Positions 1,916 through 3,112 of a stretch of 64,000 bases of DNA are shown piece after piece (positions within the stretch are counted from its first letter, which is position 1; each line of letters starts with the position of its first letter). The DNA comes from an uncultured virus (IMG/VR IMGVR_UViG_3300030708_001952) (lineage: Duplodnaviria > Heunggongvirae > Uroviricota > Caudoviricetes). The notes beneath the pieces are model-generated. The model saw only the letters and a program-made list of their open reading frames with translations, was not told the DNA's origin and did no database searches. The translations under genes and the position numbers were made by a program. The DNA is taken from IMG/VR virus record IMGVR_UViG_3300030708_001952; one strand, 5' to 3'.

Positions 1916-1933
1916 ACACCCATCGTTCATCCA

Positions 1934-2134
1934 ATGGTTTCTTTACTGTTGGCTTTGACCTTAGCCCATCACGATGACGCCAATCCTTATGGTTGGCATA
2001 TGTCCTGTGAAAGGTTCCTCCAGCGTAGTGTGGAGATTCAAATGGATCCCAACTTAGATCAACGATCTAAATGGAATCTGATTGGATACCTCAAGACAAA
2101 GGTGGATGGTCAATGTGATGGTACTTTAACCTGA
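1934..2134 (+). CDS. Small protein with signal-peptide-like N-terminus, inside riboswitch loop
   Basis: MVSLLLALTLAHH...; two Cys 35 residues apart. Confidence 0.7.
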   Translation: MVSLLLALTLAHHDDANPYGWHMSCERFLQRSVEIQMDPNLDQRSKWNLIGYLKTKVDGQCDGTLT

Positions 2135-2171
2135 GGACGCAAGTAAGTCGCGGAACGGAACGTTCATCCCA

Positions 2172-2333
2172 ATGATTGATCTTTTGCTATACGCTACTAT
2201 GCATTGCACCGATGCTGAGGATATGCTCCGACGTGTCGAAGCAAATGATAGTGTAAATGCAATCATCAAAGCTGAGGTGATTGAGACCGTAAAGGAAGCA
2301 ACACCTGAGTGTAATTGGGACGCAAACGACTGA
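2172..2333 (+). CDS. Small protein (53 aa) inside second riboswitch loop
   Basis: Hand-translated MIDLLLYATMHCTDAEDMLRRVEANDSVNAIIKAEVIETVKEATPECNWDAND*. Confidence 0.7.
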   Translation: MIDLLLYATMHCTDAEDMLRRVEANDSVNAIIKAEVIETVKEATPECNWDAND

Positions 2334-2397
2334 AGGAACGGGGAAACGGATCCACCGAAAGGTGAGAAGGTTAATCACCCACTTCAGGAGTAAACAA

Positions 2398-2675: not shown

Positions 2676-2834
2676 ATGCTGAAGGTTCGGTTTGAATACG
2701 ACCTTCCAGATTATGACCCTGACAAACACGATCCAGATAGAAAGTTCGCTTTCTTAACGTACCGTGGTGTACACTATGCCAAGTGGATTGATTTAAAATC
2801 CCGAGGCAATAAAAACTGGAAGATCAATAACTGA
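2676..2834 (+). CDS. DUF4278-like small protein (52 aa)
   Basis: Contains FLTYRGVHY motif; GAGGAAGG upstream. Confidence 0.7.
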   Translation: MLKVRFEYDLPDYDPDKHDPDRKFAFLTYRGVHYAKWIDLKSRGNKNWKINN

Positions 2835-2859
2835 GGGGGGTTGCGACCCCTCTTTTTTT
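2833..2859 (+). terminator. Rho-independent terminator ending the riboswitch/DUF4278 operon
   Basis: GAGGGG...CCCCTC stem plus T7. Confidence 0.8.
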
Positions 2860-2890
2860 GTGCTACTATATACTTAAACGCGGTGCGCTT

Positions 2891-3112
2891 ATGGAACCCA
2901 ACAGGGAACGACTGAAGTTAATTCTTCAGAATCTCAAGTCACTAGTCAACGCCCTAGAGGCTGAGATCTATTCTGATCCCGAAGCATACCAGGCTCCTAT
3001 TGGTGGTGAAACCAAAGGAACTCCTAGTTACCTTAATGTGAAGTACGAGGACCTCTTCTCCAACACCCTCACTTATAATGAAATCAACGACGATGACGGA
3101 ATCCCAGACTGA
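2891..3112 (+). CDS. Conserved cyanophage hypothetical protein
   Basis: RERLKLILQNLKSLVNALEAEIYSD...DDDGIPD. Confidence 0.75.
   Translation: MEPNRERLKLILQNLKSLVNALEAEIYSDPEAYQAPIGGETKGTPSYLNVKYEDLFSNTLTYNEINDDDGIPD

Follow-up and report, generated by a model that had tools for sequence, protein, structure and literature searches.

Introduction

Two kinds of structured RNA bear on the viral locus described here: tandem riboswitches, of which the glycine riboswitch is one, and those self-splicing group I and group II introns that carry protein genes in their peripheral loops (the td intron of phage T4 with I-TevI is an example). The locus occupies positions 1924 to 2341 of a 64,000-nucleotide (nt) DNA from an uncultured tailed virus of the Caudoviricetes (IMG/VR record IMGVR_UViG_3300030708_001952); this whole stretch is called the window below. 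We judge it likely, with a probability of about 0.7, that the locus is a sensor of the glnA (glutamine-I) type at the 5' end of an early transcript, in which two nested junctions share one helix (P3, where P denotes a paired region) and the loops of two other helices (P2a and P2b) hold genes. Like an intron that bears an open reading frame (ORF), it has a whole ORF in the loop of a folded RNA, a conflict between folding and translation, and coexisting forms with and without the ORF; unlike the introns, which are ribozymes with mobility genes, it is a predicted metabolite sensor whose ORFs encode microproteins without nuclease features.

In the study of the Synechocystis gifB/IF17 leader (PMC6212724), the cyanobacterial glutamine riboswitch acts on gifB/IF17 as an ON switch and is mostly found in association with DUF4278 genes, and ligand binding was proposed there to break up an inhibitory duplex located at the ribosome-binding site. 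That leader is of the glutamine-I class (Rfam family RF01739), and the window is like it in having P1 CGUUC/GAACG, a hairpin P2, a junction ending in AAGUA, P3, and GAAG before P1; it also lies at the 5' end of a DUF4278 transcript, and a duplex between the 3' strand of the aptamer and the ribosome-binding site fits an ON switch. It is unlike that leader in its gene-filled loops of 202 nt (P2a) and 146 nt (P2b), in a second, permuted junction inside P3, and in being missed by the Rfam model. The glutamine-II class (RF01704, the Downstream-peptide motif; PMC6698751) has in common with the window CGUUCA, a hairpin, a CGCA linker, GGAACGG with a C:G closing pair, and a helix 3' of the core that reaches the ribosome-binding site, and small DUF4278 genes of marine picocyanobacteria lie downstream of glutamine-II RNAs. 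Unlike glutamine-II, the nested fold requires no pseudoknot and has an E-loop and P3.

The tandem glnA RNAs (PMC2864571) are like the window in having two putative ligand-binding units per leader that probably communicate; in tandem riboswitches the units are consecutive, whereas here one unit would lie within a helix of the other and the helix would be shared. In Mycobacterium tuberculosis, translation of small upstream ORFs is reported to be part of the riboswitch leader, as may be the case here, but those ORFs are in the expression platform 3' of the aptamer and not inside aptamer hairpins. No more than two glutamine aptamers, from two cyanophage genomes, turned up in a 2017 survey of riboswitch distribution, whose authors took riboswitch use by phages to be rare (PMC5473149), and Table S7 of a 2023 paper contains only two phages with a glnA match, one of them P-TIM68 (PMC9964418). 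In the open-licence literature we found no account of nested aptamers with a helix in common, and none of genes lying within the hairpins of an aptamer.

Elements of the RNA

A first-pass annotation, made from the letters alone, had proposed a single aptamer of the glnA type, extended over some 420 nt, with one ORF filling the P2 loop and a second inside P3, and direct reading of the sequence found each of its core elements where it had placed them. All features of the window given here are on the plus strand. The outer P1 begins with CGUUC (1924-1928), which is invariant in relatives and is P1 in the RF01739 alignment of their compact, ORF-less alleles. The 5' strand of P2a (1930-1939), made up of UCC 1930-1932 and GGUU 1936-1939, holds the ORF1 start codon (1934-1936), and its 3' strand (2128-2137), made up of AACC 2128-2131 and GGA 2135-2137, holds the ORF1 stop codon. 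The claim that ORF1 fills the P2 loop is borne out by its limits (1934-2134; ATG 1934, TGA 2132-2134, 66 codons). P2a of the window is a weak variant, with three pairs, a 3x3 internal loop and GGTT 1936-1939/AACC 2128-2131; in most relatives seven unbroken pairs take in both the start codon and the stop codon, and 35 haplotypes have compensatory changes. The outer junction, CGCAAGUA (DNA CGCAAGTA, 2138-2145), consists of the CGC linker and the AGUA half of the E-loop, and it is followed by the 5' strand of P3, AGUCG (2146-2150).

Inside P3 there is more than the ORF that had been described there. The insert also contains GGAACGG (2152-2158), CGTTCA (2161-2166), a hairpin TCCCAAT/ATTGGGA and CGCAAA, an aptamer-like unit that the first-pass annotation had overlooked. 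GGAACGG closes what we call unit 1, and its GAACG (2153-2157) forms the inner P1 hairpin with CGUUC (2161-2165) around a GAA loop (whole feature 2152-2165); this hairpin has RNAfold pair probabilities of 0.85-0.97 in the window and is predicted by RNAalifold in compact alleles. P2b follows (UCCCAAU 2167-2173 with AUUGGGA 2314-2320; RNAfold pair probability 0.66-0.94 in the window, and seen in relatives as well), its 5' strand overlapping the start codon of ORF2 (2172-2174). ORF2 (2172-2333) has the 53 codons assigned to it and ends in TGG GAC GCA AAC GAC TGA (WDAND), so that its last six codons are the 3' strand of P2b, the inner junction CGCAAA (2321-2326) and the 3' strand of P3, CGACU (2327-2331), and its C-terminus had rightly been read as the aptamer core itself. 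The second unit ends at 2332-2341 with the GAA half of the E-loop (2332-2334) and GGAACGG (2335-2341), which includes the 3' strand of the outer P1, GAACG (2336-2340). Neither ORF has a strong Shine-Dalgarno sequence, which upholds most of what had been said of them, with the qualification that ORF2 has weak purines, GGAA 2157-2160, 11 nt 5' of its ATG; most relatives have GGAG there.

These elements would form two three-way junctions, one within the other, sharing P3. The outer junction would have the canonical order of P1 (1924-1928/2336-2340), P2a, CGCAAGUA, P3 (2146-2150/2327-2331) and GAA, and the inner junction would be a circular permutation of it, in which P1 is capped as a hairpin (2153-2157/2161-2165), P2b and CGCAAA follow, and P3 is the open end. 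The paper on the glutamine-II structure, which also compares it with glutamine-I, places every ligand contact in CGUUC/GAACG, CGC and the closing C:G pair (PMC6698751). The window has all of the contact bases (C1, G2, CGC and GGAACGG), and each of the two predicted junctions would have the full set found in the solved structures (CGUUC, CGC, GGAACGG).

Relatives and alleles without loop genes

The same motifs were found in the same order in all of the 84 related loci first examined (four isolate records and 80 IMG/VR loci, the latter collected by a search with the ORF1 protein), and the 41-nt centre of the element (2132-2172) occurs in 430 sequenced cyanophage records, once in each. Among the 65 distinct loci with both ORFs the RNA cores are 97-100% identical, as against 63% identity at the third codon positions of ORF1. 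When bacterial and archaeal genomes were scanned with GGAACGGN{1,8}CGTTCAT, the full motif was present in 0 of the 120 matches listed, which are from unrelated bacteria and are uninformative on the host cyanobacteria.

Not all relatives carry the ORFs. Three of the 80 IMG/VR loci have, in place of ORF2, a hairpin that is capped by UUCG or has a 13-nt loop, and they score 32.7 and 30.1 bits on RF01739, whose gathering cut-off is 35 bits (that of RF01704 is 33 bits); in phage P-TIM68 both hairpins are short and the score is 35.4 bits. A pattern scan that ignores the ORFs matched at least 120 loci, and among the 120 matches listed the 83 that have the junction motif were classified, 37 being dropped as unclassifiable. 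The 83 comprise 41 hairpin/ORF, 14 ORF/ORF, 13 hairpin/hairpin, 8 ORF/hairpin and 7 incomplete loci (first position for unit 1, second for unit 2), and the presence or absence of loop ORFs, a check proposed with the original claim, therefore takes all four possible combinations among related loci. In the natural ORF-less alleles hairpin loops of 4-13 nt replace the ORFs, and forms lacking ORF2 (with TTCG and CTAG loops) also occur in marine RNA libraries from three studies. One compact allele, L122, shares with the window its promoter and its gp198-type downstream gene, and 71 of the 74 core positions are identical in the two, with loops of 8 and 4 nt in L122 compared with 202 and 146 nt in the window; on this comparison of sequences L122 is an empty allele of the window's locus.

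Nine of the 13 fully compact loci score 35 bits or more on RF01739. The best are L122 and L134 (identical in sequence) at 43.6 bits, L200 at 40.3, L160 at 39.6 and L180 at 38.4. All five align in the nested manner over 87-97 nt, with P1 formed by the first CGUUC and the last GAACG, as the first-pass annotation had drawn it; P2 is the first hairpin, and it is followed by ACGCAAGUA, by P3 AGU...ACU with an insert of 38-46 nt, and by GAAG. On RF01704 the compact relatives score 25.5-34.0 bits, and only L180 is above the 33-bit cut-off.

Covariation of the helices

The P2 helices covary across their ORFs. When partners were shuffled 1000 times among the 35 P2a and 58 P2b haplotypes, no shuffle gave a mean stem length as great as the observed one, and cognate strands form 5.1 (P2a) and 5.6 (P2b) pairs compared with 4.1 and 2.5 for swapped partners. 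Among relatives UCUCAUG and UCUUAUG are the prevailing 5' strands of P2a, and CAUGAGA and CAUAAGA the prevailing 3' strands, so that changes between UGA and UAA stop codons are compensated on the other side, and with the strands UCUCAUG/CAUGAGA the start codon is paired with bases at the stop codon. We also considered a circularly permuted aptamer confined to the spacer (GGA 2135-2137 with UCC 2167-2169) and rejected it, because in relatives the strands UCUCAUG/CAUGAGA of unit 1 and UCCC/GGGA of unit 2 each match across their own ORF.

P3 pairs in a single register, with 5.64 of 8 pairs compared with 0.7-2.5 when one strand is slid (39 strand combinations from 182 loci), and the compensatory types include AGUCG/CGACU, AGUCA/UGACU, GG../..CC and CAACU/AGUUG. 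When the nested structure is imposed on 20 compact loci, 96.0% of the cells are paired (33-57% in slid controls), and double-sided changes are found at 11 pairs compared with 5.5 +/- 1.4 after shuffling, a number that none of 500 shuffles reached. Of the three helices proposed for a check of covariation, P2 and P3 covary in relatives, and both strands of P1 are invariant. The ordered motifs and covarying helices exceed chance.

The two loop genes

ORF1 and ORF2 encode two-cysteine microproteins of 66 and 53 amino acids (aa), homologues of gp196 and gp197 of phage syn9, and give full-length profile matches to phrog_6471 (E 4.1e-38) and phrog_504 (E 2.9e-22), respectively, families that have no assigned function. 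The median ratio of nonsynonymous to synonymous substitution rates (dN/dS) is 0.118 for ORF1 (69 distinct coding sequences, 2003 pairs), and the value for ORF2 is 0.35 (114 coding sequences); ORF2 proteins vary from 49 to 66 aa, and their genes always differ in length by whole codons. Both loop ORFs are under purifying selection, as the claim that they are genes demanded, and by these measures of their sequences they are real genes. Two cysteines are invariant in the alignment of each family, and hhalign matches the two families with their cysteines in register (probability 95%, E 4e-8), so ORF1 and ORF2 are, as judged from their profiles, distant paralogues, a relationship that had been missed. 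AlphaFold models of the two (predicted local distance difference test scores 80 and 82) have two helices; one cysteine lies where the first helix begins and the other follows the second helix. A Foldseek search of the PDB with the ORF1 model gave no match at E<=0.001, and the modelled ORF1 fold is a generic two-helix hairpin. A literature search on syn9 gp196-198 returned nothing relevant. Relatives of ORF2 occur in 202 phage records, one per genome, all of them cyanophages, and in the isolate records that were inspected (S-SKS1, P-RSM1 and S-RIM2) the single ORF2-family copy is in the unit-2 hairpin of the riboswitch locus.

The unit-1 loop of S-RIM2 (locus L214, positions 374-425) looks like a remnant of ORF1, in which ATG has become ATT and most of the ORF is deleted while the stem UCUCAC/GUGAGA is intact; its sequence points to loss of the ORF in this lineage, rather than gain. 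The unit-1 loop ORFs of four other loci (L151, L167, L174 and L177) form a divergent branch with a longer hydrophobic N-terminus (MTKALLLLAWVPLLS...) and end at the second cysteine, and this N-terminus looks, from its composition, like a signal peptide.

Are these genes part of the switch or have they simply settled in it? It could be that the riboswitch controls the DUF4278 gene only and that the ORFs have come to lie in length-tolerant loops, as homing-endonuclease genes have in intron loops, with no regulation in either direction. The loops of the aptamer hairpins are freely variable in length, the four ORF states coexist, ORF2-less forms are present in RNA libraries, and the S-RIM2 stem has outlived its decayed ORF1, all of which would be expected of passengers. 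Against passengers, the start codon in relatives lies within the P2 stem and is paired to the stop-codon region in most haplotypes, and neither ORF has a strong Shine-Dalgarno sequence of its own, in contrast to the AGGAG of the downstream gene (ORF3). The occurrence of the ORF2 family at one place per genome, which is the riboswitch locus in the three isolates named above, also argues against passengers, as does the ORF2 stop codon within P3 and the E-loop, since a terminating ribosome must open the sensor. We therefore regard passenger ORFs as unlikely, though as the most serious of the alternatives.

Nested or side-by-side units

The sequence could also be divided into two side-by-side aptamers with P1 helices 1924-1928/2153-2157 and 2161-2165/2336-2340 and one ORF in the hairpin of each, in which case AGUCG/CGACU would be a kissing contact. 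Each unit does contain CGUUC, CGC and GGAACGG, tandem glnA RNAs are known (PMC2864571), RF01739 gives single units of compact relatives 30.9-38.1 bits, and since the P1 strands never vary, covariation does not discriminate against this pairing. The distribution of the E-loop is the strongest argument for nesting instead. The half AAGUA belongs to unit 1 in 172 of 174 loci and does not occur in unit 2, and the half RAA before GGAACGG belongs to unit 2 in 173 of the 174 and does not occur in unit 1; each unit by itself lacks a complete E-loop, and only the nested fold joins both halves. In a side-by-side arrangement the junction strands would, moreover, join and leave P3 on the same strand, unlike those of the solved three-way junction. 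The nested alignment scores 38-44 bits in class-1 compact alleles, compared with 34 or less for single units, and RNAalifold selects the nested fold, independently predicting the outer P1 and the inner GAACG/CGUUC hairpin in 20 compact loci. That local hairpin also has a high probability (0.85-0.97) in the window. Two separate aptamers are for these reasons improbable.

The nested glutamine-I reading has its own difficulties. Neither at the gathering threshold nor at E<=10 does Rfam find a glutamine family in the window, and it finds none at E<=1 in four ORF-bearing isolates; a family search on five records likewise gave none above its cut-off. The silence on the window is likely a limit of models that face inserts of 150-200 nt (here loops of 202 and 146 nt), and not absence of the riboswitch. 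The best RF01739 alignment of the remaining eight of the 13 compact loci is on a single unit (30.9-37.7 bits). Thermodynamic folding of the ORF/ORF form is uneven: among 18 ORF/ORF relatives hand-picked from 85, P2a has a probability of at least 0.7 in 14 and P2b of at least 0.66 in 15, but that of the outer P1 is 0.04 or less in all 18, and in the window RNAfold gives P2a 0.01 and P3 and the outer P1 values near 0. Both P1 strands are invariant, and covariation is silent on which CGUUC pairs with which GAACG. A second sequence class retains two A.C mismatches in P3. Finally, the window has CGC where glutamine-I has CGG, and G for C after GAACG, which gives the glutamine-II closing pair. All of these weigh against the reading. 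P1, P2 and P3 with the E-loop are nevertheless those of a glutamine-I riboswitch, and the junction differs by one base (C for G) from the CGGAAGUA of that class; by its sequence the element is a hybrid of the glutamine-I architecture with the glutamine-II linker and closing pair (CGC...GAACGG). On the nested alignment of ORF-less alleles (38-44 bits), the covariation of P2 and P3 and the split E-loop, the structural interpretation as one nested glnA-type aptamer with ORFs in P2 and P3 is supported, and the original structural proposal stands in this extended form.

That there is no riboswitch here, and that the motifs are coding, promoter or terminator signals that resemble a glnA core by chance, is scarcely credible: Rfam has no match in the window and part of the core is read as the ORF2 C-terminus WDAND, but in S-CAM1-type relatives, where ORF2 ends earlier, the same 25-nt core is non-coding yet unchanged, ORF-free alleles score above the Rfam cut-off, four helices covary, and a DUF4278 gene lies downstream, as in cyanobacteria.

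The anti-Shine-Dalgarno helix and a proposed mechanism

A covarying anti-Shine-Dalgarno helix supports the link that had been drawn from the aptamer to the DUF4278 gene 3' of it. CUGAAG (2330-2335), which overlaps P3 and the E-loop, pairs with CUUCAG (2382-2387), which overlaps the Shine-Dalgarno sequence AGGAG (2386-2390; whole feature 2382-2390), and the RNAfold probability of this helix in the window is 0.96-0.99. A partner could be identified in 19 of the 27 haplotypes that have CUAAAG, and it is CUUUAG in 19 of 19; in CUGAAG haplotypes the facing position is C (57) or U (33). Considered as a glutamine-II pseudoknot, CUGAAG/CUUCAG does enclose GGAACGG 2335-2341, but it overlaps P3 and the E-loop and is better read as an OFF-state duplex.

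Between the aptamer and the Shine-Dalgarno sequence the window has an optional 33-nt stem-loop module (2343-2375), which only some of the relatives share. Its closing stem is AAC 2345-2347/GUU 2370-2372 (in relatives ACAC/GUGU or CUC/GAG), and within the stem are an internal loop, GGAUC/AGAAG, and a hairpin that covaries and is capped by GAAA (CACC 2353-2356/GAAA/GGUG 2361-2364). A second candidate hairpin, GGUGA/UCACC in 2361-2379, was rejected; it is not conserved, and syn9 does not have it.

A mechanism can be proposed from these positions. In the absence of glutamine, the CUGAAG-CUUCAG pairing would mask the Shine-Dalgarno sequence of the DUF4278/IF17-like gene. Glutamine would stabilise the outer P1, the E-loop and P3, and because these use the same bases as the masking helix, the ligand-bound fold would free the Shine-Dalgarno sequence and turn translation ON. 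Both ORF1 and ORF2 have their start and stop codons in or beside the P2 stems, and the ORF2 stop codon (2331-2333) lies within P3 and the E-loop; a ribosome on the ORFs would thus open the sensor, and the folded sensor would hide the ORF starts. We infer glutamine binding, translation of the ORFs and their competition on the RNA from this arrangement. The outputs would be reciprocal, with the microproteins made at low glutamine and the IF17-like protein at high glutamine. Coupling between ORF translation and ligand sensing is plausible from the placement of the codons, and reciprocal expression appears the most likely logic. The coexistence of the four ORF states counts against an essential coupling, since the switch can evidently work without the ORFs. 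The full model, a translation-gated nested double riboswitch with two glutamine sites around a shared helix, in which ribosome traffic and ligand folding would be mutually exclusive and the microproteins would be produced at low glutamine and an IF17-like inhibitor of the host glutamine synthetase at high glutamine, is accordingly offered as a tentative one, to which we give somewhat less than even odds.

Genome context of the locus

The 5' end of the window lies inside psbA, and its gene content is typical of T4-like cyanomyoviruses; the 1400-2900 stretch has matches in 424 cyanophage records. In syn9 the homologues of the genes of the locus are gp196, gp197 and gp198, between nrdB and talC. 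Upstream of the element a sigma-70-type promoter (TTGACT, 17 nt, TATAGT; 1887-1915; 10 of 12 matches) ends 8 nt 5' of CGTTC, and a similar promoter ends 7-10 nt 5' of CGTTCA in 129 of 152 distinct relatives. A GTA-N8-TAC box, which we take to be the NtcA consensus, lies 5' of the -35 hexamer (1865-1878), and the pattern GTAN8TAC recurs in 120 of the 153 distinct 110-mers taken from upstream of related loci, in most cases with its centre 50-53 nt 5' of CGTTCA. The conserved placement of this NtcA-type box suggests that the host nitrogen regulator may act on transcription, on top of the riboswitch. Contigs from marine RNA (metatranscriptome) libraries end at 1920, 1922 and 1913 and have zero cover at 1700-1875 and 2800-3000, but contigs show neither strand, start nor level, and such ends are a weak hint of transcript ends, including a 5' end at the P1 strand. 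The summed contig depth over 2132-2360 in the RNA libraries X1, X2 and X6 is sharply peaked on both conserved cores (bins 2140-2183 and 2316-2359). These peaks likely arise because the cores are common to many phage strains, and they are not to be taken for small stable RNAs; contig depth was left out of any gene ranking.

The regulated gene, ORF3 (2398-2565), encodes a 55-aa DUF4278/IF17-like protein, the homologue of syn9 gp198, with an E value of 2.5e-35 against phrog_545 and a score of 22.2 bits (E 1.8e-4) against Pfam PF14105, which is under the 25.3 cut-off of that family. The element therefore has the leader position of a glutamine-I riboswitch, 5' of a DUF4278/IF17-type gene. The same operon continues with a 31-aa hydrophobic ORF (2571-2666) and a 52-aa ORF with a YRG motif (2676-2834; phrog_6192), to which Pfam does not assign DUF4278, and it would end at a predicted intrinsic terminator (2833-2861). 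Sequences similar to the two extra small ORFs are visible in Syn19, S-CAM1 and S-SCSM2R. In public phage records that have the 41-nt core, a 'hypothetical protein' is often annotated across the non-coding core between the two ORFs, and none of the individually inspected phage records has an RNA feature annotated at the locus.

Significance

If the fold is right, the hairpins of an aptamer can tolerate whole genes, two binding sites can nest around one helix, and a virus may couple host nitrogen sensing to a choice between sets of small proteins, one of which is related to glutamine synthetase inhibitors. The central core occurs in 430 phage records, compared with two known glutamine aptamers, and in most of them it is hidden by gene-sized loops. 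Such loops defeat covariance-model searches, and if this is true more generally, phage riboswitches may be undercounted and far commoner than reported, which gives a concrete reason to look for other riboswitches by methods that tolerate long inserts.

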